Of a stretch of DNA of 24,000 bases, positions 10,037-23,104 are shown one piece after another (the stretch's first letter is position 1; every line of letters starts with the position of its first letter). The translations under genes and the position numbers were made by a program. The stretch is from Candidatus Saccharimonadota bacterium (GTDB lineage: Bacteria > Patescibacteriota > Saccharimonadia > Saccharimonadales > JAGQNJ01), in contig JAGQMZ010000003.1 in the NCBI GenBank assembly GCA_020428405.1, forward strand, positions 1 to 24,000, read 5' to 3'. The notes below the pieces were generated by a model. The model did no database searches and was not told the origin of the DNA. It was given only the letters and a program-made list of their open reading frames with translations.

Positions 10037-10411
10037 ATGGCCGATAATAAAACAAAGCTTTCTAGTGGTGGAGAAACGCATGAGGTAACTAGGGATAGTT
10101 CATGGAGGAGTAGGTTTAAATCAAAACTCAATTCTTTTAGTTACCACCAAAAAGTATTAGTAGCTTTCATTGTAATTGGGGTTGTGGCCACACTAGGCTT
10201 TGCGATACTTATAGCCTTTGATACTTCAGATCAGGATAATGGACTTATACAGGTGGATAATCAGGAAATAGATCAAGCAACACTTGATCAAGCACTTGAG
10301 CAAGCTGAAAAAGACCCTTCATCAATCCCTTCTGGTGCATTCATGCCAGAATTAGGGGAAGATTACTTTACAGCCGATAGTAACGCAAGTGATACGGAGT
10401 CATTTCAGTAA
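10037..10411 (+). CDS. Module A small single-pass membrane protein (124 aa, acidic C-terminal ectodomain)
   Basis: ORF with one TM helix (VLVAFIVIGVVATLGFAILIAF). Its stop overlaps the next start as TAATG, indicating translational coupling. I recognise no family. Confidence 0.55.
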   Translation: MADNKTKLSSGGETHEVTRDSSWRSRFKSKLNSFSYHQKVLVAFIVIGVVATLGFAILIAFDTSDQDNGLIQVDNQEIDQATLDQALEQAEKDPSSIPSGAFMPELGEDYFTADSNASDTESFQ

Positions 10412-12549
10412 TGAATTATCAACACGGAGCTAAAAACATACTAGTTTCTAAAAGAAACATTATTTTAATTAGCTTAATTATTACATTAGCGATTCTGGCT
10501 GTAAGTGTTGTATTATCTGGGACTGCTTTTGCCAACGGAGCCGTTGGTACTGGCGGTAGTGGTAGTGGTGGTGGTACAGGTGGTGGTGGATACAATTCTA
10601 GGAATGGCTTTACGTGGGCTGCATATGATATTAATGGCCCAGGCCCAAGCGGGGGCTTTAGGAATGGTGCTTCTTGGGGATCTATTAGGTCTGTATGTCA
10701 AGGGGTAAACGCAGGTAGTATTAGTATTTATGTAATACGCAGTGCAAATACAAACCAATTTAGAGGATATAACTATAATCAAGATTGGAGTATAGGTAAA
10801 ATTGCTGATGGTTCTGTTATAGATGGTGGGAGAGCTACGGCAATTCCAAGCTACTGGGCTAGGGCTGCGTTTGATGCTTTGCCAGCAGCTGCGAAAGCAG
10901 GCTATACTTTTGGTGGATCAAATGGAAATGTATCTTGGCTTTGCACCGGCTTAGGTAATAATCCAAATCCTCAAGGCAGATCGCTATTTAGTTGTTCTCG
11001 TGGGTTTCAGGGATGGGCATTAGATGCAGATAACTTAAGTGCACGTCTTGGTGTTGCGGTATTAGTTAGGAGGAGTGGCACTACTGCGTGGAGTACATTA
11101 AGCCTTACTACTGCAAACCAGCCAATACCTGAACCGCCATTCAATAGATCAAATCTGGCCGCATTTGGTGTAAGTGGTAACCGTGGCTTTACGGTCTCAT
11201 TGCCAAGCTCGTATAGGGACAATCTATCTTATGATTGGATGATTATTGCGGCTAATGCAACTGGCACACCAGGTGCTCCAATTGCAAATATAACCCTTCT
11301 AGATGGAGCACCATTCAGTAGTTTTAGGTGTCCGACACCATGGGACGTAGGCGTAAATGTAAGCTGTGATGTAGATGCCGGTACAATAACCTTTTCGGTT
11401 TCAAAAACCGGAACCGTTCCAGGTAATGTGACTGTTACCAGAAGTGCAAGACTGACAAATCCTGTTCGTGCTTTAGCTCCTTCTTCTCCAGTAACTTTGA
11501 ACAACAGTCAAATACCATGGTCACAGACATATGACATAAATCCCCAGCCCGACCTTGGTCAGCATGTAGAGTCTAGTATATCTATTTCGCCCGGTGGCGC
11601 AGGAACTTCAAATAACACAAGTAACGATAGTGATAGTTGTAGTGATGGCCCCCGCACCGCCAAACCCTACCTCCGTGTATACGGCGGGGACGTAGTAACT
11701 GGTCTTGATTTCCAAGCATCTGATGGAACCTGCTCTGGTATAAAAGATACTACAGCAGGCATTAACGCCCATTCCAGAAATGCAGGGGGTAATCTAGTAG
11801 GTGCTGGCTCACAGTTTGCCACTAGTGCCGCCGGCCAAATCGTATCATTTATTTCTGCCGCTAACCACAACGGAGCAGCCTCAACTAATACAAGACCGTT
11901 TAAAGACTTAATGTTTAGTAATACTACATCTGGCAACTATGGTAATGACATAGGTGCCTACAGCGGCTGCCTGCCTGACTACTCTAAATTAATGGATACT
12001 ACTGGGGGTGCTAGTAGTTATACCCCGGGATCTACTATTGCAGCCAATAGCTCTGGCGGTATTCGTCGTTACCATGAAGGTAATCTTGACATAACAGGAG
12101 ACATTACATTACTACCATCACAAACCATTGATGCTGATAACGGCTTTGTTAACATCATTATTGTTAAAGGTGGCGACATACGTATAGCTCCAGTAGTAAC
12201 ACAAATAGATGCTTTGCTAGTGGCTATACCAGATGATTCTGGCAATGGCGGTACTATAGACACTTGTTACTTAAGTACAGTAGCAACCGGAGGCCCTTGT
12301 GTTAACAAACTAACCATAAATGGATCATTGGTTGCTAATAAGATAGAATTTGACCGTCTAGGTGGTGATTTACGAGATGCAGGTAGTGATGAAACGCCAG
12401 GCAGTGGCAGCATAGCCGAAGTCATCAACTACCCAGCTTACCTAAACTTTGTCTTTACAGGCCTAGTAGAAAATTCAGTACCAGCAGCCTCATCCCCACT
12501 TAACATAGGGGATTATGATAGTATTGCTGAATTACCGCCAGTTTTGTAG
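10411..12549 (+). CDS. Module A large secreted protein (712 aa): unique N-terminal region plus shared C-terminal domain
   Basis: Signal or anchor sequence with an AFA-NG cleavage-like site, then a Gly-rich linker (GTGGSGSGGGTGGGG). The C-terminal 289 aa, from AKPYLRVYGGDVVTG, are identical to those of the 13165-15177 product. I recognise no family. Confidence 0.75.
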   Translation: MNYQHGAKNILVSKRNIILISLIITLAILAVSVVLSGTAFANGAVGTGGSGSGGGTGGGGYNSRNGFTWAAYDINGPGPSGGFRNGASWGSIRSVCQGVNAGSISIYVIRSANTNQFRGYNYNQDWSIGKIADGSVIDGGRATAIPSYWARAAFDALPAAAKAGYTFGGSNGNVSWLCTGLGNNPNPQGRSLFSCSRGFQGWALDADNLSARLGVAVLVRRSGTTAWSTLSLTTANQPIPEPPFNRSNLAAFGVSGNRGFTVSLPSSYRDNLSYDWMIIAANATGTPGAPIANITLLDGAPFSSFRCPTPWDVGVNVSCDVDAGTITFSVSKTGTVPGNVTVTRSARLTNPVRALAPSSPVTLNNSQIPWSQTYDINPQPDLGQHVESSISISPGGAGTSNNTSNDSDSCSDGPRTAKPYLRVYGGDVVTGLDFQASDGTCSGIKDTTAGINAHSRNAGGNLVGAGSQFATSAAGQIVSFISAANHNGAASTNTRPFKDLMFSNTTSGNYGNDIGAYSGCLPDYSKLMDTTGGASSYTPGSTIAANSSGGIRRYHEGNLDITGDITLLPSQTIDADNGFVNIIIVKGGDIRIAPVVTQIDALLVAIPDDSGNGGTIDTCYLSTVATGGPCVNKLTINGSLVANKIEFDRLGGDLRDAGSDETPGSGSIAEVINYPAYLNFVFTGLVENSVPAASSPLNIGDYDSIAELPPVL
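11659..12525 (+). repeat. 867 bp perfect direct repeat, copy 1 (inside the 712 aa ORF)
   Basis: I compared it by eye, line by line, with 14287-15153 at an offset of 2628 bp and found no mismatch. The antisense ORFs in the track (11667-11936 vs 14295-14564, and 12069-12263 vs 14697-14891) are also identical. Confidence 0.95.
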
Positions 12550-12587
12550 GTAAATCATAAGCAGTATAGTACAATTTAAATAATTGT

Positions 12588-13178
12588 ATGAGTGAGTCAT
12601 CAACTGAACAACAAGGTAAAACTTTTATTGAGAAAAAGCCACCAAGCAAGTGGAAAAAAATTGCAAACTTTAAAGCTTATAGTAAAAAAAATAAAATATT
12701 AGCTGTGATAGCAGTTTTAATAATATTTTCTAGCGTAGTAAGTTTGATTGGTTATAAATATTGGCAATCAAGATATTACATTTCCCCAGAAGAAGAAGCA
12801 CTAGTTTTACAAGAAGCAAAAGATTTAATGATACAAGGTGACTTTGAAGCTGCCGATGCAAAATACCAATATTTAATTAGTAAAAAGTTATACAGCCAAG
12901 ACAAAGCAAATATATATCAAACTCAGTCAAAGCTTTGTGGTGATCTTAATAAGTATGACTGTAGCTTAACGGCATGGAAAAATTCTGGCCAACTTATTAA
13001 GCCTGACTATCAGTACTACTTAACGTTGGCAAATCTATTAAGTATAAACGGTGATGAATCAGGTAGCATTATTGCTTATCGACAAGCATATCAAAATATG
13101 GAAAATAACCTTGATTTAAGTGACGAGGATAAAGAATTAAAATCTGAATTAAAGGAGTACCTAAATGCTAACCAATAA
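12588..13178 (+). CDS. Module B small single-pass membrane protein with a TPR-like helical ectodomain (196 aa)
   Basis: One TM helix (ILAVIAVLIIFSSVVSLIGY), then helical-repeat-like sequence (AKDLMIQGDFEAADAKYQYLI..., YYLTLANLLSINGDESGSIIAYRQAYQ). It overlaps the next ORF by 14 nt and contains that ORF's RBS, AAGGAG (13153-13158). Confidence 0.6.
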   Translation: MSESSTEQQGKTFIEKKPPSKWKKIANFKAYSKKNKILAVIAVLIIFSSVVSLIGYKYWQSRYYISPEEEALVLQEAKDLMIQGDFEAADAKYQYLISKKLYSQDKANIYQTQSKLCGDLNKYDCSLTAWKNSGQLIKPDYQYYLTLANLLSINGDESGSIIAYRQAYQNMENNLDLSDEDKELKSELKEYLNANQ

Positions 13179-15177
13179 GATAAAGAAGTATCTTTTAATT
13201 TCATCGATTATGCTTGGTAGTTTTTTGGGAGTGATTATTGTAAATACATCTAATGCTGAAGCAGCCACCGTTTACATCCCTATGAGCTATAATAGTCCGT
13301 CGCCCGGGCTTTTAAATGCTTACAAGGATCGGCCGGGAACACCACAATATGCAATAGTTGGGCCAGCCACTACCTCTCGTGGTATATTGAATGAAAGGTA
13401 TAGTGAATCTTTATCTCCAGGTGCAAGGAATTTTATAAGACGAGTTTTTTCGGCTGAAGCTAGATTTAACATACCTCCTTGCGCATCAGGTTTATCTATA
13501 TCTATGACAGGTCTCGGGGGGAGTGGTGGGCAAAGCGTCTCTTTTAGAGGTTATTCTGGGCCAAGAGGTTCCGAGGGAGCATTTTACCCTCCCACATATG
13601 ACTGGCCTGAAGCTCGAGCTGATATCTGGAGTAATTCAAATGGTACTGGTCTATTGGCAACTTCCTTTGCCCCCGCTTTAGCAGATATTGGCCCAGGTGA
13701 TACTGTAACATTTTCGTCATCTTCTTTTAGCCCAAGTAATGTATACATAACTCCTGCTGATTTAAGTAACGGTATTACCTTTTCTTTTTGGGTAGAGACG
13801 TTTGACCAGCTTAGTAATCAAGGTTTATTTGGTATTGGCAGGCAATGGAGCTTTAATTTGACTGGAAGTCCGTTTCTAAGAGTAACCTATAATACTGACA
13901 GCTGCCCATCATTCAATTTAAATGCCAATATAGATATTGATCGTAACACTGGTGACGTTGACTTTTCGTCATACAACAGTGGGAATGGAGCCTCACGTTT
14001 TAGCGATGGTGCCGGCGCACGCGTAATTCGACAAGTCTGGGTGAATGGTGCTCCTCAACTTTCTGGTTCTAATAACACCTCTAGAGAGATAATTAATCCT
14101 AGTGCAAACTGGCAAGATAACTGGTCTGGAGCTTCTGTCCTTCCTGGTGATGTAATATGTGCTGAACTTACAGTTGGTCCAAGGTCTGGGTTAACTGACT
14201 TTGCAGTTTTTAGCGAGCCCCCATCTCCGCTTACAAATCAATACGCTCACCAAGGAGGCTTAAATGTAAACTGTGTTACTAATGTTGCCAAACCCTACCT
14301 CCGTGTATACGGCGGGGACGTAGTAACTGGTCTTGATTTCCAAGCATCTGATGGAACCTGCTCTGGTATAAAAGATACTACAGCAGGCATTAACGCCCAT
14401 TCCAGAAATGCAGGGGGTAATCTAGTAGGTGCTGGCTCACAGTTTGCCACTAGTGCCGCCGGCCAAATCGTATCATTTATTTCTGCCGCTAACCACAACG
14501 GAGCAGCCTCAACTAATACAAGACCGTTTAAAGACTTAATGTTTAGTAATACTACATCTGGCAACTATGGTAATGACATAGGTGCCTACAGCGGCTGCCT
14601 GCCTGACTACTCTAAATTAATGGATACTACTGGGGGTGCTAGTAGTTATACCCCGGGATCTACTATTGCAGCCAATAGCTCTGGCGGTATTCGTCGTTAC
14701 CATGAAGGTAATCTTGACATAACAGGAGACATTACATTACTACCATCACAAACCATTGATGCTGATAACGGCTTTGTTAACATCATTATTGTTAAAGGTG
14801 GCGACATACGTATAGCTCCAGTAGTAACACAAATAGATGCTTTGCTAGTGGCTATACCAGATGATTCTGGCAATGGCGGTACTATAGACACTTGTTACTT
14901 AAGTACAGTAGCAACCGGAGGCCCTTGTGTTAACAAACTAACCATAAATGGATCATTGGTTGCTAATAAGATAGAATTTGACCGTCTAGGTGGTGATTTA
15001 CGAGATGCAGGTAGTGATGAAACGCCAGGCAGTGGCAGCATAGCCGAAGTCATCAACTACCCAGCTTACCTAAACTTTGTCTTTACAGGCCTAGTAGAAA
15101 ATTCAGTACCAGCAGCCTCATCCCCACTTAACATAGGGGATTATGATAGTATTAGCGAGCAGCCACCTATTTTGTAA
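13165..15177 (+). CDS. Module B large secreted protein (670 aa): unique N-terminal region plus shared C-terminal domain
   Basis: Signal peptide (LLISSIMLGSFLGVIIVNTSNAEA-AT). The N-terminal 375 aa or so show at most faint similarity to module A. The C-terminal 289 aa are identical to module A, and the last 7 aa diverge again (SEQPPIL vs AELPPVL). Confidence 0.75.
   Translation: MLTNKIKKYLLISSIMLGSFLGVIIVNTSNAEAATVYIPMSYNSPSPGLLNAYKDRPGTPQYAIVGPATTSRGILNERYSESLSPGARNFIRRVFSAEARFNIPPCASGLSISMTGLGGSGGQSVSFRGYSGPRGSEGAFYPPTYDWPEARADIWSNSNGTGLLATSFAPALADIGPGDTVTFSSSSFSPSNVYITPADLSNGITFSFWVETFDQLSNQGLFGIGRQWSFNLTGSPFLRVTYNTDSCPSFNLNANIDIDRNTGDVDFSSYNSGNGASRFSDGAGARVIRQVWVNGAPQLSGSNNTSREIINPSANWQDNWSGASVLPGDVICAELTVGPRSGLTDFAVFSEPPSPLTNQYAHQGGLNVNCVTNVAKPYLRVYGGDVVTGLDFQASDGTCSGIKDTTAGINAHSRNAGGNLVGAGSQFATSAAGQIVSFISAANHNGAASTNTRPFKDLMFSNTTSGNYGNDIGAYSGCLPDYSKLMDTTGGASSYTPGSTIAANSSGGIRRYHEGNLDITGDITLLPSQTIDADNGFVNIIIVKGGDIRIAPVVTQIDALLVAIPDDSGNGGTIDTCYLSTVATGGPCVNKLTINGSLVANKIEFDRLGGDLRDAGSDETPGSGSIAEVINYPAYLNFVFTGLVENSVPAASSPLNIGDYDSISEQPPIL
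14287..15153 (+). repeat. 867 bp perfect direct repeat, copy 2 (inside the 670 aa ORF)
   Basis: Identical to 11659-12525. Identity begins at GCCAAACCCTACC and ends at ...GATAGTATT in both copies. Confidence 0.95.
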
Positions 15178-15230: not shown

Positions 15231-16268
15231 ATGAGCTTATTAACTGGTGTTTCTGACTTTTTTGGCCTAGACATCGGTACCACAGCAGTAAGACTAGTAG
15301 AATTACGAGGGGGTGGGCCGGTAAAACCATTGGTGCGTTACGGATATGTGCCAATTGATATTCGTTTGGCAGTAAGTGACTCTAAGCCTGATCAGCAAAA
15401 AACGGCTCAGGTGTTAAAAGATTTATTAGTACAATCTAAGGTTACAAGCAGAAATGTAGTTGTTGGTATTCCGTCACAAAGAGTTTTTACTACGCTTGTT
15501 GATATAGACAAACTAGAAGGTGACGAGCTTGATAAATCTATTAAGCTTCAGGTTGATTCAATAATACCTACGCAAGCTTCTGAATCTAAGATTGATTGGG
15601 TTGTGCTTGGTGATTCACCGAAAGATCAAAATAAAGTAGAAATTTTACTAACAAGCGTTCCTAATGAGTACGTTGAGGGAAGGTTAGATATGTTGGAGTC
15701 AATAGGCCTTAATGTTATTGCTTTTGAGCCGGATAACATTGCTCTAACCAGATCTTTAGTTGCGCCAGACGCCACGTTGCCGCAAATGGTGGTCGATGTT
15801 GGTCAGAATAGTACGGATATAGTTATAACTATGAATGGCGCACCAAGACTAACTAGATCAATTCCCACAGGAGCGGGGGCAGTTGTGAAGGCTGCCATGC
15901 AAAACTTAAATATTGATGAACAACAAGCTCACCAATTTGTGTATAAGTTTGGTCTTAGCCAGGATAGGCTTGAGGGCCAGATATACAACGCGGTAATTAG
16001 TACGGTTGATATTATGGAGGCTGAGCTAGAAAAATCTATAAAATTCTTTGCAAATAGGTATCAAACACAAATTGAAAGAATTATTGTATCTGGTGCAGCA
16101 TCAGTAATGCCAGATTTGCCAGCCTATATTGCAAATAAGACAGGACTAAGTGTAGAAATAGGTAATGCTTGGCGAAATGTTAGCGTAGGCTCAGCCCAGC
16201 AAAATGATTTAATGGCGCTATCACCATATTTTGGGGTAGCAGCAGGTTTAGCGGAGAGAAATGAATAA
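15231..16268 (+). CDS. pilM: Type IV pilus assembly protein PilM (actin-like ATPase fold)
   Basis: 345 aa. FGLDIGTTAVRLVEL is the N-terminal actin-fold phosphate motif. The gene sits first in a pilMNO-pilBTC cluster. Confidence 0.85.
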   Translation: MSLLTGVSDFFGLDIGTTAVRLVELRGGGPVKPLVRYGYVPIDIRLAVSDSKPDQQKTAQVLKDLLVQSKVTSRNVVVGIPSQRVFTTLVDIDKLEGDELDKSIKLQVDSIIPTQASESKIDWVVLGDSPKDQNKVEILLTSVPNEYVEGRLDMLESIGLNVIAFEPDNIALTRSLVAPDATLPQMVVDVGQNSTDIVITMNGAPRLTRSIPTGAGAVVKAAMQNLNIDEQQAHQFVYKFGLSQDRLEGQIYNAVISTVDIMEAELEKSIKFFANRYQTQIERIIVSGAASVMPDLPAYIANKTGLSVEIGNAWRNVSVGSAQQNDLMALSPYFGVAAGLAERNE

Positions 16269-16978
16269 TGGTTCAATTCAATTTATTACCAGATGTAAAA
16301 CTAGAGTATGTTAAAACACAAAGGACTAAGCGGCTAGTTATATTTGGTGCACTTGGTGTTACAGGTATTTGTGTATTTATACTTGTTTTGCTATTTATGC
16401 TAGTAAATGTATTTCAAAGACAACATATAGGTAATTTGAATGACGACATCAAACAATATACAGCTGATTTAGAAAAAGTACCCGAGTTAGACGAAGTTCT
16501 TACTATACAGAACCAACTAAACGTATTGAATGGATTACACGAACAAAAACCTGCAGCACAGCGAATATACGATTACCTTGTACAGTTAACACCTTCAGAT
16601 GCCAAACTATCTGAAGTCTCTATAAATTATGAGGAAAACACCATTTCACTTAGTGGGTCAGCAACTAGCCTACAAGTTATAAATAAATTTGTTGATACCG
16701 TAAAATTTACTGAATATCAGTATGATGATGCAAAAGACCGTGCGTTTTCAAATGTAGTACTATCTAGTTACGGAATTAGCGAGAGTGACTCTGCTCAAGA
16801 AAGAACATCTTACACCATTGATCTTATATACGATCCAGTGATATTTGATAACACAAAAGCTGTTACACTTGTTGTTCCACCAATTATATCTACTAGATCC
16901 ATAACCGAAAAGCCACAAGACTTATTTGAGCCAAAGCCTATAGAAAATCCTATAGATGGAAACGGAGGAACTCAATAA
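16268..16978 (+). CDS. pilN: Type IV pilus assembly protein PilN-like
   Basis: The N-terminal FNLLPD motif (the PilM-binding INLLP-type peptide) is followed by a single TM helix. It has TAATG coupling with pilM. Confidence 0.75.
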   Translation: MVQFNLLPDVKLEYVKTQRTKRLVIFGALGVTGICVFILVLLFMLVNVFQRQHIGNLNDDIKQYTADLEKVPELDEVLTIQNQLNVLNGLHEQKPAAQRIYDYLVQLTPSDAKLSEVSINYEENTISLSGSATSLQVINKFVDTVKFTEYQYDDAKDRAFSNVVLSSYGISESDSAQERTSYTIDLIYDPVIFDNTKAVTLVVPPIISTRSITEKPQDLFEPKPIENPIDGNGGTQ

Positions 16979-17649
16979 TGGCAAAAAGTGCAGGCACAGG
17001 AAAAAGAGACCTAATAGGCAAGACAAACTCAAAAATGGTTGCTACTGTTGCCATAGCAGCTTTCTTGAGCGTATTTTCTTTAATTGCAGCTAGAGCTTTA
17101 TGGAGTCAAAGAGGCTATCAGTCTAGAGTGATAGGAGAAAAAGAAAAAGCCGTAAGTCAGCTTGAAGAAAATATAAAAGCAGTTGAAGAGCTTGAGGTAT
17201 CTTATAGAGCATTTGTAGAAACGCAAGATAATGTTATTGGTGGTAACTCTCAAGCTCTTGGCGATCGTGATGGTGATAATGCAAAAATTGTGCTAGATGC
17301 ATTGCCGAGCAAGTATGATTACCCGGCTCTTATAACCAGTATGGAGAAGTTGCTTGCAGAAAATAACTTTACTCTAAAGTCAATTGGTGGCCAAGATGAT
17401 GAAATCGCTCAAGCAGAATCAAGTTCAGCAGAGCCAGTCATGGTTCCGTTTAGCTTAACTAGCGAGGTCGGTAATTACGTCCGTGTAAATGAACTATTAC
17501 AAACTCTTTACCGTTCAATCAGGCCAATACACTACAAGAATTTAAATATTAGTGGTAGTGGAGAGTCTGCCTTGGAGGTTAGTGTAGACGGGTTTACGTA
17601 CTATCAGCCTTCAAAAGAGTTCAAGGTAGATACAAAGGTGGTTAAGTAA
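16978..17649 (+). CDS. pilO: Type IV pilus assembly protein PilO-like
   Basis: 223 aa with one TM helix, a coiled-coil segment (EKEKAVSQLEENIKAVEELE) and a position after pilN. It has TAATG coupling with pilN. Confidence 0.65.
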   Translation: MAKSAGTGKRDLIGKTNSKMVATVAIAAFLSVFSLIAARALWSQRGYQSRVIGEKEKAVSQLEENIKAVEELEVSYRAFVETQDNVIGGNSQALGDRDGDNAKIVLDALPSKYDYPALITSMEKLLAENNFTLKSIGGQDDEIAQAESSSAEPVMVPFSLTSEVGNYVRVNELLQTLYRSIRPIHYKNLNISGSGESALEVSVDGFTYYQPSKEFKVDTKVVK

Positions 17650-17886
17650 ATGAAACAAAAAGACATAGCACTTATAATAGTAATCTCATTTATATCTGGC
17701 ATACTTTCTTTCTTTCTAACTAATTTGCTCATTACAAACCCAGAGAACAGGCAAGAAGAAGTAGAAGTTGTAGAACCTATATCAAGCACATTTACAGAAC
17801 CAGATACCAGATATTTTAACGCTGAAGCTATTAACCCAACTCAACTTATACAAATTGGTAATCAAGATAATCAACAGCCTCTTTAG
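17650..17886 (+). CDS. Small single-pass membrane protein in the pilus operon (78 aa)
   Basis: Its ATG follows directly after the pilO stop. It has one TM helix (IALIIVISFISGILSFFLTNLLI) and a Gln/Asn-rich tail. I recognise no family. Confidence 0.5.
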   Translation: MKQKDIALIIVISFISGILSFFLTNLLITNPENRQEEVEVVEPISSTFTEPDTRYFNAEAINPTQLIQIGNQDNQQPL

Positions 17887-17904: not shown

Positions 17905-19722
17905 ATGAGCGTGTTATCTACCGAAGTACAAAAAAAGGTTGAGAAAGCCATAGTTGATCAAGGCTTGTTGACAGCACAAAAAATTGCCCAACTAAAAGAT
18001 AAGGCTGACAATGACAATACTCCTTTCTTTTCACTTTTAATTAAAGAAGATAACATTTCTGACGAATTGCTGACAAAGATGACTGCTAGCGCCTCGGGCG
18101 TGCCCTATGTTAATCTTTCTAATGCTAAAATTAAAGCACAAGTATTACAGTTGCTCCCATATGAAATGGCTGAACGGTATATGGCTGTGCCTTTGGGGGA
18201 GATGGAGCACAGATTGGTTGTTGCAATGCTTGATTCTGATAACGTTCAAGCTATAGATTTTTTGTCTAATAAAATCGGTAGACCCATACGTGTATTTGCC
18301 GCAAGTGAATCAGGTATCAGGCACGTTCTTATGCAATACAAGACTGCTTCAAAGCCAGGAATGACCAACGCCTATGAAGAAGCAAGTACTGGAATTGAAA
18401 TACCAGAAGAATTTAAACGTGCGGCAAGAGCCGAACAAGCTGAACAAGACCAATCTAATCAGGCTATAAAAACCCTGTCTCAAGATTCACCAATAAGCAA
18501 AGTTTTATCAGCCATTTTAGAATATGCAGCCAATAATGGAGCTAGTGATATTCATATAGAGCCTACAGAAAAAGACTTAAGAATTAGGTGTAGAATTGAC
18601 GGTGTATTGCGTGAAATCATGAGGTTGCCCAAATCAACAGAACCACCGCTAGTTTCTCGCGTAAAGATACTAGCTAGTCTTAAGATTGATGAGCATAGGT
18701 TGCCACAAGATGGTCAATTTACCGTAAGTGTGGCTGATAAAAGTATTGATTTGCGTATAGCTATATCTCCTGTTGTTTGGGGCGAGCAGGTTGTTATTCG
18801 ATTACTTGATAAGTCTGGCACAAGCTTAAAATTAGAGGATATGGGCTATAAAGGGAGGGCGCTAAGATCAATCAGAGGAGCTCTTCAAAGTCCTAATGGA
18901 ATGGTATTAACATCTGGCCCAACTGGCTCTGGTAAGTCAACCTCTATGTACGCTTTACTGCAAGAAATTAAAAACGACACAATAAATATTGTAACTCTTG
19001 AAGACCCTGTTGAGTACAAAATGAACGGCATTAACCAAATACAAGTTAATACAGATATTGGCTTAACTTTTGCATCAGGCCTTCGTTCTGTACTTAGGCA
19101 GGACCCTAATGTTGTTATGGTAGGTGAGATTCGTGACAAAGAAACCGCTACACTAGCTGTACAGGCTGCATTAACTGGCCACTTAGTGTTTTCTACACTT
19201 CATACAAACTCAGCTGCTGGTATTTTGCCAAGACTGCTAGATATGGGCATAGAGCCTTTTTTGATAGCTTCAACTGTACGTACAGTTATTGGCCAGCGTC
19301 TTGTTAGAAGATTAGCTGATGGGGCAGAACAGTATCAATCTAATAGTGCAGAAGTACAAGCAATTAACAAGGTTCTAGGTAGTATGCTGCCTAAAACTAA
19401 GCAAGACGTTCCAAAAATTGCCGAGGATCTTGGGTATAAAACCTTGCCTATGCAGGGTCAAAACGCTTATACTTTATTTAAGGGCAAAGAAACTGCCTCT
19501 GCACCTGGTGGCTATAAAGGAAGAATGGGCTTGTACGAGGTCTTTGATGTAACGCCAGAGATCCAGCAACTTATTCTAAAGCGCGCTACTAGTAGTGAAA
19601 TTCAAAAACTAGCCATTCAACAGGGGATGGTAAGTATGCGCCAAGACGGATACTTAAAAGCGCTAGCTGGCCACACTACATTATCAGAAGTTGATAGAGT
19701 AGCTGCAGAGGATAGTGCCTAA
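17905..19722 (+). CDS. pilB: Type IV pilus assembly (extension) ATPase PilB / GspE family
   Basis: 605 aa. It has a T2SSE_N-like N-terminal domain, Walker A GPTGSGKST, an Asp box (TLEDPVEY), Walker B (VVMVGEIRD) and a His box (TGHLVFSTLHTN). Confidence 0.92.
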   Translation: MSVLSTEVQKKVEKAIVDQGLLTAQKIAQLKDKADNDNTPFFSLLIKEDNISDELLTKMTASASGVPYVNLSNAKIKAQVLQLLPYEMAERYMAVPLGEMEHRLVVAMLDSDNVQAIDFLSNKIGRPIRVFAASESGIRHVLMQYKTASKPGMTNAYEEASTGIEIPEEFKRAARAEQAEQDQSNQAIKTLSQDSPISKVLSAILEYAANNGASDIHIEPTEKDLRIRCRIDGVLREIMRLPKSTEPPLVSRVKILASLKIDEHRLPQDGQFTVSVADKSIDLRIAISPVVWGEQVVIRLLDKSGTSLKLEDMGYKGRALRSIRGALQSPNGMVLTSGPTGSGKSTSMYALLQEIKNDTINIVTLEDPVEYKMNGINQIQVNTDIGLTFASGLRSVLRQDPNVVMVGEIRDKETATLAVQAALTGHLVFSTLHTNSAAGILPRLLDMGIEPFLIASTVRTVIGQRLVRRLADGAEQYQSNSAEVQAINKVLGSMLPKTKQDVPKIAEDLGYKTLPMQGQNAYTLFKGKETASAPGGYKGRMGLYEVFDVTPEIQQLILKRATSSEIQKLAIQQGMVSMRQDGYLKALAGHTTLSEVDRVAAEDSA

Positions 19723-19734
19723 AATAAGAAAGCG

Positions 19735-20814
19735 GTGGGAAGAAATATGGAATCACAACCAAGAATAGAATTACTACTAGAAGAAGTTGTAAAGCGTAAA
19801 GCATCAGATCTTCACCTTCAAGTAGGCTTGACGCCAATGCTAAGAATTGACGGTAAGCTTACACCAACACCTGGCACTCAGGTATTGAACGAAGAAGCTG
19901 TAGAGGCTTTGGTTTTTTCTATCCTGGATGAAGACCAAAAACAAATTTTGCTTAAAGATAAAGAGTTTGATTTCAGTTTTGCCTTTGGTGATCTTGGCCG
20001 GTTTCGTGTAAATGCTTTCCATGAGCGTGGTAATCTTGCGGCAGCCTTGCGTTTAATTCCTAACGAGCTATTAAGTGTAGAGCAGCTAGGCTTGCCAACC
20101 GTTGTAAATAAATTTGCCCAGCATCCTAGGGGTCTTGTGCTTGTAACTGGGCCAACTGGTTCTGGTAAGTCCACTACTTTGGCGGCTCTTGTAGATAAAA
20201 TCAATAGCGAGCGAGCGGAACACATTATTACTATTGAAGATCCAATTGAATTTACTCATAAATCTAAGAAGTCTGTTGTTGTACAAAGAGAAGTCCACTA
20301 CGATACTTATTCGTTCTCGGCAGCTCTGCGTAGTACCTTGCGTGAAGACCCAGATGTAGTGCTTATTGGCGAGATGCGAGACCTAGAGACTATAGCCTCG
20401 GCAATTACTATTGCCGAAACGGGCCATTTAGTTTTTGCAACGCTTCATACCAACTCGGCAGCGCAGAGTATCGACCGTATGATTGACGTATTTCCACCGC
20501 ATCAACAACCGCAAATCAGGGCTCAGCTTTCTAACATATTAATGGCAATTTGTTCACAGAGGTTGATTCCTTCAATCGGTGGCGGGCGTGTAGCGGCAGC
20601 AGAAATTTTAATAGCAACACCTGCCGTAAGAAACATTATCCGTGAGGGCAAGAGCCACCAGCTAGAGGCTGTTATTCAAACAGGTGCAGAGTTTGGCATG
20701 CAATCTATGGATAAAACACTGGTAGAACTTATTCATTCAGGAACAATTACGTACGACGAAGCTCGCAATTATGCCGTTGATCTAGGGGAATTAGACAGGT
20801 TAATGAGGGGTTAA
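19735..20814 (+). CDS. pilT: Twitching-motility (retraction) ATPase PilT
   Basis: It has Walker A GPTGSGKST, TIEDPIEF, LIGEMRD, TGHLVFATLHTN and a PilT-type AxRNxIRE motif (PAVRNIIREGK). The start could instead be the ATG at 19747 (MESQPRIELL...). Confidence 0.92.
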   Translation: MGRNMESQPRIELLLEEVVKRKASDLHLQVGLTPMLRIDGKLTPTPGTQVLNEEAVEALVFSILDEDQKQILLKDKEFDFSFAFGDLGRFRVNAFHERGNLAAALRLIPNELLSVEQLGLPTVVNKFAQHPRGLVLVTGPTGSGKSTTLAALVDKINSERAEHIITIEDPIEFTHKSKKSVVVQREVHYDTYSFSAALRSTLREDPDVVLIGEMRDLETIASAITIAETGHLVFATLHTNSAAQSIDRMIDVFPPHQQPQIRAQLSNILMAICSQRLIPSIGGGRVAAAEILIATPAVRNIIREGKSHQLEAVIQTGAEFGMQSMDKTLVELIHSGTITYDEARNYAVDLGELDRLMRG

Positions 20815-20818
20815 ATGA

Positions 20819-22033
20819 ATGTTAACGTTTAAGTATACGGCACGAGACCCGGCAACTAAGAAGAAAATTATAGCAGAAGTAGATGCAGATAACGAAAAAT
20901 CCGCAGCAAAAATTATTCGCGATCAAGGCCTTATTCCGGTTTCGGTAACGGCAAATAAAGAGGGTGGACTGTTTTCTAAGTTTAAGAATCGCATTAGCAC
21001 AAAAGATAAAGTATTGTTTTCTCGCCAACTTTCAACACTTATAAATGCGGGATTGCCATTAGTGCAATCTTTGCGCAATGTATCTGGGCAAACTCAAAAT
21101 AAAGCTTTTCAGGCAGTTATTGCTAAAATTATTACTGATATTGAGGCAGGCAGTAGCTTTCATGAAGCGCTAGCTAAGCACCCCAAAGTATTTAATGACG
21201 TCTTTGTAAACTTAGTTGCAGCAGGTGAGGCCTCGGGTACCCTAGATAAAGCGCTTGCCCGTTTAGCAGACCAGCAAGAAAAAGACGCCGAGATTGTTCG
21301 CAAAATTCGCGGTGCTATGGTTTATCCAGTTATTGTTCTTGTAGTAATGGTTGCTGTGGTTGGTTTTATGATATTAACCGTAATGCCACAGGTAGAAAAA
21401 ATATACGCAGACTTACCGGGGGCCAGCTTACCGTTAATAACGCGTGTTCTTATTGCTATAGCAAACTTTACAACCAAATATTGGTGGATTGTCTTAATAG
21501 CATTAGCACTTACGGCATTTTTTACTACCAGATGGGCAAGAAGCTTAGGTGGTAAAGAAGCAATAGACAAAGCAAAGATGAGAATGCCCGTTTTTGGCCC
21601 ACTATTTATGAAGGTTTACATGGCTCGTTTTACCAGAACGGGTGCAACATTAGTAGCAAGCGGCGTTCCACTTATACAAATGCTAGAGATTGTAGGTAGA
21701 GCTATAAATAATATTCACCTTGAACGTTCAATAAATAAAATCATAGAAAAGGTAAAAGGTGGTAAGGCCCTATCAGAGTCTATAAAGGGTGACGATAACT
21801 TTTTAACCTTAGTTCCAGACATGATTAGAATAGGTGAACAATCGGGCTCTTTAGAGGATATGTTAGAGCGTACAGCGGAGTATTATGAAAAGGAAGTAGA
21901 CCAACAAATAAAGACCATCTCGACAATTATAGAGCCTATATTAATGGTTTTGCTTGGTGTTGTTGCATTCGGTATTGTTGCCGCCGTGTTATTGCCAGTT
22001 TACGGATTAGTAAATCAGACTAATATTGTTTGA
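20819..22033 (+). CDS. pilC: Type IV pilus platform protein PilC (GspF family)
   Basis: 404 aa with two GspF-type repeats (FSRQLSTLINAGLPLVQSL and FTRTGATLVASGVPLIQML) and three TM segments. Confidence 0.92.
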   Translation: MLTFKYTARDPATKKKIIAEVDADNEKSAAKIIRDQGLIPVSVTANKEGGLFSKFKNRISTKDKVLFSRQLSTLINAGLPLVQSLRNVSGQTQNKAFQAVIAKIITDIEAGSSFHEALAKHPKVFNDVFVNLVAAGEASGTLDKALARLADQQEKDAEIVRKIRGAMVYPVIVLVVMVAVVGFMILTVMPQVEKIYADLPGASLPLITRVLIAIANFTTKYWWIVLIALALTAFFTTRWARSLGGKEAIDKAKMRMPVFGPLFMKVYMARFTRTGATLVASGVPLIQMLEIVGRAINNIHLERSINKIIEKVKGGKALSESIKGDDNFLTLVPDMIRIGEQSGSLEDMLERTAEYYEKEVDQQIKTISTIIEPILMVLLGVVAFGIVAAVLLPVYGLVNQTNIV

Positions 22034-22138: not shown

Positions 22139-22612
22139 ATGTTACAAAAATATAAAGATAAGAAAGACCAGGGATTCACCATCATCGAGGTGTTGATTGT
22201 GCTTGCCATAGCTGGCCTAATCATCTTGATTGTGTTCTTGGCCGTACCTGCGCTTCAGCGTAACTCACGTAATACGCAGCGCCGAAACGACGTCAGCGCA
22301 ATATTGGGCTCAATTCAAGAGTTTTCCAACAATAATGGAGGCGATTTACCGACCGCTACTGATAAGTCAACAGTTCTAGCGAATGCCGAACGAGGCATAT
22401 ATGAAGATGATGCTGCGATATCAATTAGTGGCTCAGTGCCAACAGCTCCAGCTGATGCATCAACACAACTTGAAACAGTTGATATCATCACTGGCGGTAC
22501 TTGCAGTAGCCCAACGACCGCCACTACAACGGGTGCGAGCAGCAGAGAGGTTGCCATCCGCTTCTGGGTAGAAACTTCAGGCGCACCTCAGGAACAATGT
22601 CAAGCTAGCTAA
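22139..22612 (+). CDS. pilA: Type IV pilin (probable major pilin)
   Basis: It has a class III signal peptide, a 12 aa leader ending in G and then FTIIEV (Glu at +5), followed by the hydrophobic helix LIVLAIAGLIILIVFLAV. A C-terminal Cys pair (C121, C154) brackets a Thr/Ser-rich patch. It has its own promoter, a strong RBS and a strong terminator. Confidence 0.9.
   Translation: MLQKYKDKKDQGFTIIEVLIVLAIAGLIILIVFLAVPALQRNSRNTQRRNDVSAILGSIQEFSNNNGGDLPTATDKSTVLANAERGIYEDDAAISISGSVPTAPADASTQLETVDIITGGTCSSPTTATTTGASSREVAIRFWVETSGAPQEQCQAS
22194..22278 (+). repeat. 85 bp perfect direct repeat, copy 1 (pilin N-terminal helix coding region)
   Basis: Identical to 22764-22848 at an offset of 570 bp. 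The flanks on both sides are mismatched. Confidence 0.9.
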
Positions 22613-22708: not shown

Positions 22709-23104
22709 GTGCAAATTAATAACAACAAACGGGGCAATAATGCGTTTACTATCATAGAAGTTATGATTGTGCTTGCCATAGCTGGCCTAATCATCTTGAT
22801 TGTGTTCTTGGCCGTACCTGCGCTTCAGCGTAACTCACGTAATACGCAAAGAAAAGAAGGAATGTCTCTTGTTGTTTCTGCTTTTAAAGAGTGCTTGCGA
22901 AACCACCATAATAAGATTAGCAGCAATTGTGATTCTGAAACGCTCATGACGTCGTATATTACTTTTGATGAGCTAAAGATGTTTACTGGATATACATTTC
23001 CAAATCCAACATTAGATGAGTTTAACTCTGTAGATGGCGTATGTAGTGACACTAAGACTGACGTTGTGCCGGTGGCAGTAGGTCATTTTCGTACCTATAT
23101 TTAA
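22709..23104 (+). CDS. Type IV pilin paralogue (second, atypical pilin)
   Basis: GTG start. A 12 aa leader ends in Ala (KRGNNA) and is followed by FTIIEV and the same hydrophobic helix as pilin 1. The C-terminal domain is unrelated and has three Cys. Confidence 0.75.
   Translation: MQINNNKRGNNAFTIIEVMIVLAIAGLIILIVFLAVPALQRNSRNTQRKEGMSLVVSAFKECLRNHHNKISSNCDSETLMTSYITFDELKMFTGYTFPNPTLDEFNSVDGVCSDTKTDVVPVAVGHFRTYI
22764..22848 (+). repeat. 85 bp perfect direct repeat, copy 2
   Basis: Identical to 22194-22278. Confidence 0.9.

Follow-up and report, generated by a model that had tools for sequence, protein, structure and literature searches.

A mismatch-free C-terminal tract in two tandem secreted-protein genes at a Saccharibacteria type IV pilus locus: probable recurrent gene conversion between old paralogues of an undescribed family

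In Helicobacter pylori, the outer-membrane adhesin paralogues babA/babB and sabA/sabB carry segments that are kept near-identical by gene conversion while the ligand-binding part differs, and recombination also produces chimeras and copy-number changes. At type IV pilus loci, Neisseria PilC1/PilC2 and Pseudomonas PilY1 are large Sec-secreted non-pilins encoded together with the pilus genes, with a conserved C-terminus and a variable adhesive N-terminus; Neisseria has two PilC paralogues, and pilC1/pilC2 undergo gene conversion. Here we describe a chromosomal locus from a Candidatus Saccharimonadota bacterium (contig JAGQMZ010000003.1, positions 1 to 24,000, assembly GCA_020428405.1; this whole stretch of 24,000 nucleotides (nt) is referred to as the window), in which two tandem genes, A and B, encode large secreted proteins with dissimilar N-terminal parts (heads) and the same C-terminal domain (tail). 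Judging from sequence comparisons, we consider it probable, at roughly three chances in four, that the tails are kept alike by recurrent, tail-restricted gene conversion between paralogues that are themselves old.

The two genes belong to two tandem modules lying between ychF and pilM, each formed by a small membrane-protein gene translationally coupled to a gene for a large Sec-secreted protein. The first module (all features of the window given here with coordinates are on the forward strand) consists of the open reading frame (ORF) sA, coding for a single-pass membrane protein of 124 amino acids (aa) (10037..10411), whose stop codon overlaps the start of gene A in an ATGA, and of gene A itself (10411..12549; 712 aa; KC950_00950, MCA9342568.1). 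The second consists of sB (12588..13178), a gene for a single-pass membrane protein of 196 aa whose ectodomain is TPR-like, which overlaps by 14 nt the start of gene B (13165..15177; 670 aa; KC950_00960, MCA9342570.1). Each large protein is made up of a signal peptide, a head and the shared tail. The predicted Sec signal peptide of A spans 41 aa (10411..10533, ...GTAFA/NG) and was read by eye from its basic n-region, hydrophobic core and AxA site; that of B spans 33 aa (13165..13263, ...SNAEA/AT) and was likewise read from the sequence. Head A, of the A type (~375 aa, 10534..11658), is an old orthologous module with a Gly-rich N-terminus, and head B, of the B type (~341 aa, 13264..14286), has no detectable protein similarity to it (best BLASTP E = 0.075).

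The repeated tract, R, occupies 11659..12525 in gene A (copy 1) and 14287..15153 in gene B (copy 2). A repeat search and a base-by-base comparison both gave 0 mismatches in 867 nt at an offset of 2628 nt, and the tract is in frame in both genes, beginning 416 codons into A ((11659-10411)/3) and 374 codons into B ((14287-13165)/3), so that 289 identical residues are encoded within the 712-aa and 670-aa ORFs. An exact match of this length cannot have arisen by chance. Directly upstream of the tract the identity is ~25%, the random level at this offset, while downstream the unconverted 3' ends of A (12526..12549, AELPPVL and stop) and of B (15154..15177, SEQPPIL and stop) agree at 13 of 24 nt (gctgaattaccgccagttttgtag versus agcgagcagccacctattttgtaa). 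Among these final 8 codons there are five positions at which a silent difference is possible (four same-residue codons and the stop codon), and four of the five differ. The sharp boundaries of the tract are real, and in identity, frame and flanks the locus is as the preliminary description of the window had claimed.

The tract in common belongs to a C-terminal domain of ~300 aa by which a large and hitherto undescribed Saccharibacteria family can be recognised. Neither A nor B has a match in Pfam or NCBIfam, and for the tail consensus and 20 relatives the same collections likewise yielded no match above threshold. In an exhaustive HMMER search with B against 1.84 billion cluster representatives (50% identity clusters, E <= 1e-3), 763 clusters were matched, which sets the family size at 763 or more such clusters. 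Nearly all of these matches are confined to query residues ~370-670, and the matched region is the extreme C-terminus of relatives that are 300-1231 aa long. The tails almost always terminate in ...YDSITSLPP[VI]L and contain three invariant cysteines and a fourth that is nearly so; the N-termini read as Sec signal peptides rather than pilin signals, and the heads are diverse, with a few members carrying CARDB, VWA, DUF11 or DUF6923 domains. All named database members are called 'hypothetical protein' and come from Saccharibacteria or Saccharimonadales: an exact-sequence look-up traced A and B to two hypothetical proteins in a metagenome-assembled genome (MAG) labelled 'Candidatus Saccharibacteria bacterium', on a contig of 51 kilobases (kb), and the 18 matches of a profile search of a word-indexed database are again all 'hypothetical proteins'.

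The AlphaFold2 model of the tail, built from an alignment of 73 sequences, is beta-rich and of good predicted quality (predicted local distance difference test score (pLDDT) 81, predicted template-modelling score (pTM) 0.84), with the last 18 residues disordered. Sequence searches of the PDB with the tail profile, head A and head B found no relative. Two of 73 family members match DUF7305 (PF23981; gathering threshold 27 bits) with a best E of 1.1e-6, and protein P0137 matches it weakly inside the tail region (E = 0.013, 15.8 bits, under the threshold); the window tail and the family consensus have no DUF7305 match, and the domain is not mentioned in the literature examined. A distant relationship between the tail and DUF7305 is possible. 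Two further observations concern the ends of these proteins. In the terminus of B, SEQPPIL, a glutamine replaces the leucine of ...LPP[VI]L that 90% or more of the aligned family members have. There are also headless, 'tail-only' members of ~360 aa, made of a signal peptide and a tail (L017, L023, L024, L026 and L029; L numbers denote loci from other assemblies and P numbers family proteins); pilM follows directly in four of these five loci, and the L024 contig ends too early to tell.

The heads can be followed across genomes. The A-type head orthogroup comprises the window A, L011_1/P0019, L007_2/P0006, L010/P0010, P0012 and P0024 (44-59% identity over 230-416 aa), the window head being 44-52% identical to those of L011_1, L007_2 and L010 over 230-414 aa, and in each case where the contig reaches the upstream gene (window, L011, L007) this gene is an sA orthologue. 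Head B has an orthologue in L011_2/P0003 (29-30% identity over ~380 aa; 29% over 383 aa with L011_2), and over its last ~120 aa it is similar to the domain that adjoins the tail in several other heads. The three independent MEGAHIT contigs L011-L013 have ychF, on the minus strand, followed by sA-A-sB-B-pilM as in the window, with a PilM in L011 that is 79% identical to that of the window. Since both modules stand in the same order in L011, they must predate the split of the window and L011 lineages.

The tails behave differently. Their identity is 34-45% between genomes versus 62-100% within genomes, and in 7/7 genomes with a tandem pair the nearest tail is that of the co-resident paralogue (62-100% versus at most 53% aa identity elsewhere). 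Between L007 and L011, PilM is 87% identical, the A-type heads 52-55% and the tails 44-45%. From one lineage to another, the divergence of the tail equals or exceeds that of the A-type head (34-45% versus 44-59% identity). With heads and partners orthologous in L011 and tails grouping by genome, the earlier proposal of a recent conversion between old paralogues, and not a recent whole-gene duplication, is supported. The accompanying picture of a constant tail with interchangeable heads needs amending: the layout is indeed family-wide, but the tail is constant only within one genome.

Tail homogenisation recurs in at least five lineages. The L007 pair shares a tract of 924 base pairs (bp) with 1 mismatch (on a 50-kb contig), the L009 pair one of 918 bp at 99.8% (170-kb contig) and the L021 pair one of 939 bp at 99.5%, while the P0010/P0021 pair is 99% identical in the last 280 aa. 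In L007, L009 and L021, the 5' edge of the tract lies 0-8 codons from the domain-opening motif [KR]PY.R.YG, as expected if heteroduplex is unable to spread into heads that lack homology. At the other end the position is variable, falling 24 nt before the end of the stop codon in the window and beyond the stop in L007, L009 and L021, which indicates that no fixed site is involved. Pairs whose tails have already diverged are mosaic. In the L011 tails, 60 nt are matched at 100% and the 3' end at 87-95%, against 37-67% in the remainder. Third codon positions that agree are clustered along the tails of three pairs, L011, L025 and L028, where the longest runs span 24, 16 and 21 codons, respectively (permutation P <= 3e-4). 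Because these three pairs are diverged, assembly collapse is excluded for them. Taken together, these observations carry the usual mark of concerted evolution through episodic gene conversion. Comparison at the level of strains, which differ at 0-2 positions in 3-5 kb and nowhere within R, carries no rate information.

Mechanistically, RecA-type non-reciprocal homologous recombination would repeatedly overwrite one tail with the other. Conversion would halt on the 5' side where homology ends, at the boundary between head and tail domains, and in the window genome it would have halted 24 nt short of the end of the stop codon; the latest event there would be recent enough for no substitution to have accumulated in 867 nt. 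As a weaker proposition, the tail may be a common docking or anchoring module matching a partner on the cell surface or the pilus that evolves fast and is specific to the lineage, with the heads supplying alternative binding activities. A tail that is constant only within a genome and evolves fast between lineages would fit such a module, as both paralogues would benefit from being updated jointly. This functional reading is much less certain than the conversion mechanism.

An alternative history would start from a recent duplication of a whole module, after which one head and its partner gene were replaced by a relative's DNA through natural transformation. Saccharibacteria are naturally competent (PMC10633639), the heads are modular throughout the family, and the order of the modules in L007 is swapped with respect to the window and L011, all of which would suit this scenario. 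However, it requires at least five independent recurrences, with the same pairing of sA with A or sB with B and at the same place. Moreover, the short mosaic tracts in diverged tails point to ongoing exchange from tail to tail, and the synonymous saturation of the last 8 codons implies that both 3' ends are old. We therefore consider this scenario unlikely, and less parsimonious than gene conversion.

The way R is threaded in public data bears on two other explanations. Four public short-read assemblies represent essentially the same strain, with 0-2 single-nucleotide polymorphisms. Denoting sB plus head B as X, L003 reads head A-R-sB-head B; L002 reads sB-head B-R-pilM and starts exactly 55 nt inside copy 1, a typical k=55 k-mer break; L005 reads head A-R-pilM; and L004 is a closed loop of 2649 bp, sB-head B-R-sB. 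The four junctions of the window (head A to R, R to the sB gene, head B to R, and R to pilM) recur in L003 and L002, which were assembled independently from short reads of other samples. The short-cut threading is found in a second lineage as well (L006 versus L009), and L008 and L010 each put a different head beside pilM.

One possibility is a programmed switch of heads, in which recombination between tails would delete, excise or amplify sB and head B at appreciable frequency, so that members of the population would differ in the head beside pilM and thereby in host range or antigenicity. The contigs that it predicts exist in two lineages (the head A-R-pilM join of L005, the circle or amplification of L004, and L006 as opposed to L009), and P0010 and P0021 are each found beside pilM in different samples. 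Nevertheless, mis-threading in low-coverage short-read assemblies predicts identical contigs; each gene is complete, having a signal peptide and a coupled partner of its own, and hence is no silent cassette; and there is no recombinase gene in the locus, where a deletion would be irreversible. Such a programme is in our opinion improbable. The contigs with alternative junctions could be real products of deletion, excision or amplification, or mis-threaded repeats at low coverage. That the direct repeats would permit deletion or amplification, as the preliminary description suggested, is plausible, although the matching contigs L005, L004 and L006 fit mis-threading equally well.

The other possibility is that the tandem itself is an assembly artefact, a single tail having been duplicated, or two strain variants stitched into a false tandem, with one consensus running through both copies. 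The break of L002 inside R, the joining of the first head to pilM in L005 and L006, and the closed X-R loop of L004 are what such an error might leave. Against it, X lies between two stretches of R whose 3' ends differ (AELPPVL leading into sB, SEQPPIL leading into pilM), which requires two copies of R wherever X exists; for loci with diverged tails (L011-L013, L025, L028) the assembly of two successive modules in this order is unambiguous, and tandem pairs also stand on the 50-kb and 170-kb contigs. An artefact is thus very improbable. Finally, purifying selection alone, holding the tails identical without recombination, is refuted by the synonymous-site pattern: although the tail is a recognisably conserved family domain, selection cannot fix every synonymous site in ~289 codons while the adjacent 8 codons differ at 4/5 silent positions, and between genomes the tails are only 34-45% identical.

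Several points weigh against recurrent conversion of a functional docking domain or limit how far it can be pressed. The assemblies take all four paths through R, which means that short reads do not resolve the repeat, and the '100%' identity is an upper bound, since assemblers collapse near-identical repeats and pop bubbles; we estimate the true identity of R at ~98% or more. Exact identity and tandem copy number rest on short-read assembly and are not secure. With the tract passing the stop codon in L007, L009 and L021, the unconverted last 8 codons of the window need no functional explanation, and a role for them as a partner-specific C-terminal peptide was dropped on the same ground. In the cultured Southlakia epibionticum ML1, ychF (SEML1_0103) lies 12 nt from pilM (SEML1_0104) with no module in between (PMC10633639, Table S1), so that the family is an accessory insertion and not core pilus machinery. 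On the functional side, a Foldseek search of PDB and BFVD with the tail model gave no significant neighbour, the top matches being beta-helices of ice-binding proteins at E ~0.1, and single-sequence AlphaFold2 of the gene B product reached a pLDDT of only 30, yielding no head model.

Both small partner genes may serve in protein export. The sA product has a weak match to SurA_N_3 (PpiD-like; E = 4.5e-5, below the cut-off), as does, also weakly, its L007 orthologue; its orthologues, L011_157 and L007_123, share 40% identity with it, and both lie directly before a gene with an A-type head. The sB orthologue L011_196 (32% identical) matches TPR_21/YfgM-like at 26.1 bits, with a cut-off of 25.5. 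PpiD and YfgM, two chaperones anchored in the membrane, associate with the Sec translocon, and by analogy sA and sB may encode membrane-anchored export or folding helpers. Within sB, a poly-A run (~12745-12752) has eight A in the window versus nine in the Logan contig L004 (~2330), where the ninth shifts the frame upstream of the membrane segment; this is a single observation, which reflects either an error in sequencing or phase variation by strand slippage.

The association with the pilus locus extends to most of the related loci. A profile from an 8-sequence tail alignment recovered 20 metagenome loci, 16 of which have room downstream of the family genes; pilM comes next after the last family gene in 14 of these 16, and L001, the sole locus from the genome collection, has the same synteny. 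One of the two exceptions is a family gene followed by another sB-like gene. In the other, L014 (25-3941), the family gene sits between the prepilin peptidase gene pilD and a gene for a 323-aa pilin-like protein, a second type of pilus-gene neighbourhood. Across genomes the ychF-pilM gap holds from 0 to 2 modules. The swapped arrangement of L007 (2569-7818) places a module of a 186-aa protein and a non-A head first and the one of sA and an A-type head second, before pilM; this order could have arisen by duplication and deletion through the shared tails. Upstream of the module in L006/L009 there is a gene for a CHAP-domain protein with six 147-nt tandem repeats that code for a GW-rich motif (1146-1936, L006 coordinates).

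In the window, the modules are followed by a full set of type IV pilus genes, beginning with pilM (15231-16268), pilN (16268-16978) and pilO (16978-17649), identified by Pfam and TIGR01175 matches among the three, and then by a conserved ORF for a 78-aa single-pass membrane protein (17650-17886). The size and position of this ORF are kept in L001, L007, L009, L010 and L011 (78-81 aa), and its positional counterpart in Southlakia, SEML1_0107, is listed as essential in transposon-insertion sequencing (Tn-seq). The next three genes we take to be pilB (17905-19722), pilT (19735-20814) and pilC (20819-22033), named by recognising their translations; T2SSE and T2SSF domains are present in the products of the syntenic genes of L007, L009 and L011. 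Two pilin genes with N_methyl matches close the series (22139-22612 and 22709-23104). They share a direct repeat of 104 nt (22175-22278 and 22745-22848, 94% identity) covering the N-terminal signal and the alpha1-helix region, while their globular parts are unrelated, the same layout of a shared module with a different remainder as in the A/B tails; this repeat, too, may have its source in conversion. Upstream of the modules lie housekeeping genes for S6, SSB, EF-P, NUDIX, TlyA-like, beta-lactamase-family, Crp, bPH-domain, ychF and DUF1801 proteins. No transfer RNA or Rfam element was found within the window, and a scan of the window for promoters and terminators performed no better than on shuffled sequence.

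Cultivated Saccharibacteria attach to host bacteria, and type IV pili are required for attachment and growth (PMC9894109, PMC10633639, PMC11623550). In many environmental Saccharibacteria, the space between ychF and pilM is taken up by the family described here, for which a role in host adhesion is possible; with swappable heads and a tail that evolves fast and is homogenised in each genome, its members are concrete candidates for host binding. A bolder proposal would make the family an accessory set of host-recognition adhesins of the Saccharibacteria pilus, in which the identical tails drive a recombinational switch of host range and the alternative-junction contigs (L005, L004, L006, L008/L010) are real variants. 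If true, an obligate episymbiont would maintain subpopulations with different heads beside pilM; we find this doubtful. A more practical consequence is that 0.9-kb repeats at ~100% identity make short-read MAGs unreliable at this locus, where public assemblies of the same strain present four gene orders.

Comparison with described systems places the locus among familiar processes and, at the same time, outside known families. As in babA/babB, paralogous genes appear to be homogenised in part by intragenomic conversion; unlike them, A and B belong to an unrelated family, fold and organism, and whereas the bab loci are dispersed and share both ends, A and B are in tandem, share the C-terminal domain only and lie at a pilus locus. 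They resemble PilY1/PilC in being Sec-secreted, in being encoded at a pilus locus (the link to the pilus being one of gene neighbourhood) and in combining a C-terminal domain common to the paralogues with an N-terminal part that varies, but the A/B genes stand upstream of pilM and not in a minor-pilin operon. Membership of the PilY1/PilC family was rejected: there is no PilY1/PilC match in Pfam (E <= 10), the tail model is not propeller-like, and PilY1 is absent from the Foldseek matches. Nor are A and B type IV pilins, as they lack the N_methyl match that the pilins at 22139 and 22709 have, and their N-termini read as Sec/signal peptidase I signals; the Thermus thermophilus ComZ (PDB 6qvi), a pilus-associated competence pilin, appeared as the fifth Foldseek PDB match, a non-significant one (E = 0.52, probability 0.38, TM 0.20), and unlike A and B it has a class III signal and belongs to the true pilins. 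A silent-cassette system of the pilE/pilS, vlsE or msp2 type was rejected because both genes are complete with start, signal peptide and coupled partner, and a sortase LPXTG substrate because LPP[VI]L forms the very last residues, with no hydrophobic segment or basic tail after it. PilX1 of TM7x, described with a pilin domain and a jelly-roll domain, was dropped as a homologue.

With the concerted evolution of tufA/tufB and of rRNA operons, the locus shares paralogues that are closer within a genome than orthologues are between genomes, together with sharp tract boundaries; it differs from them in that conversion would be limited to one fast-evolving domain of otherwise non-homologous genes. 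The process of conversion is therefore familiar, and what is new is an undescribed family at the pilus locus, the recurrent homogenisation of its tails and the disagreement between the public assemblies that contain them.

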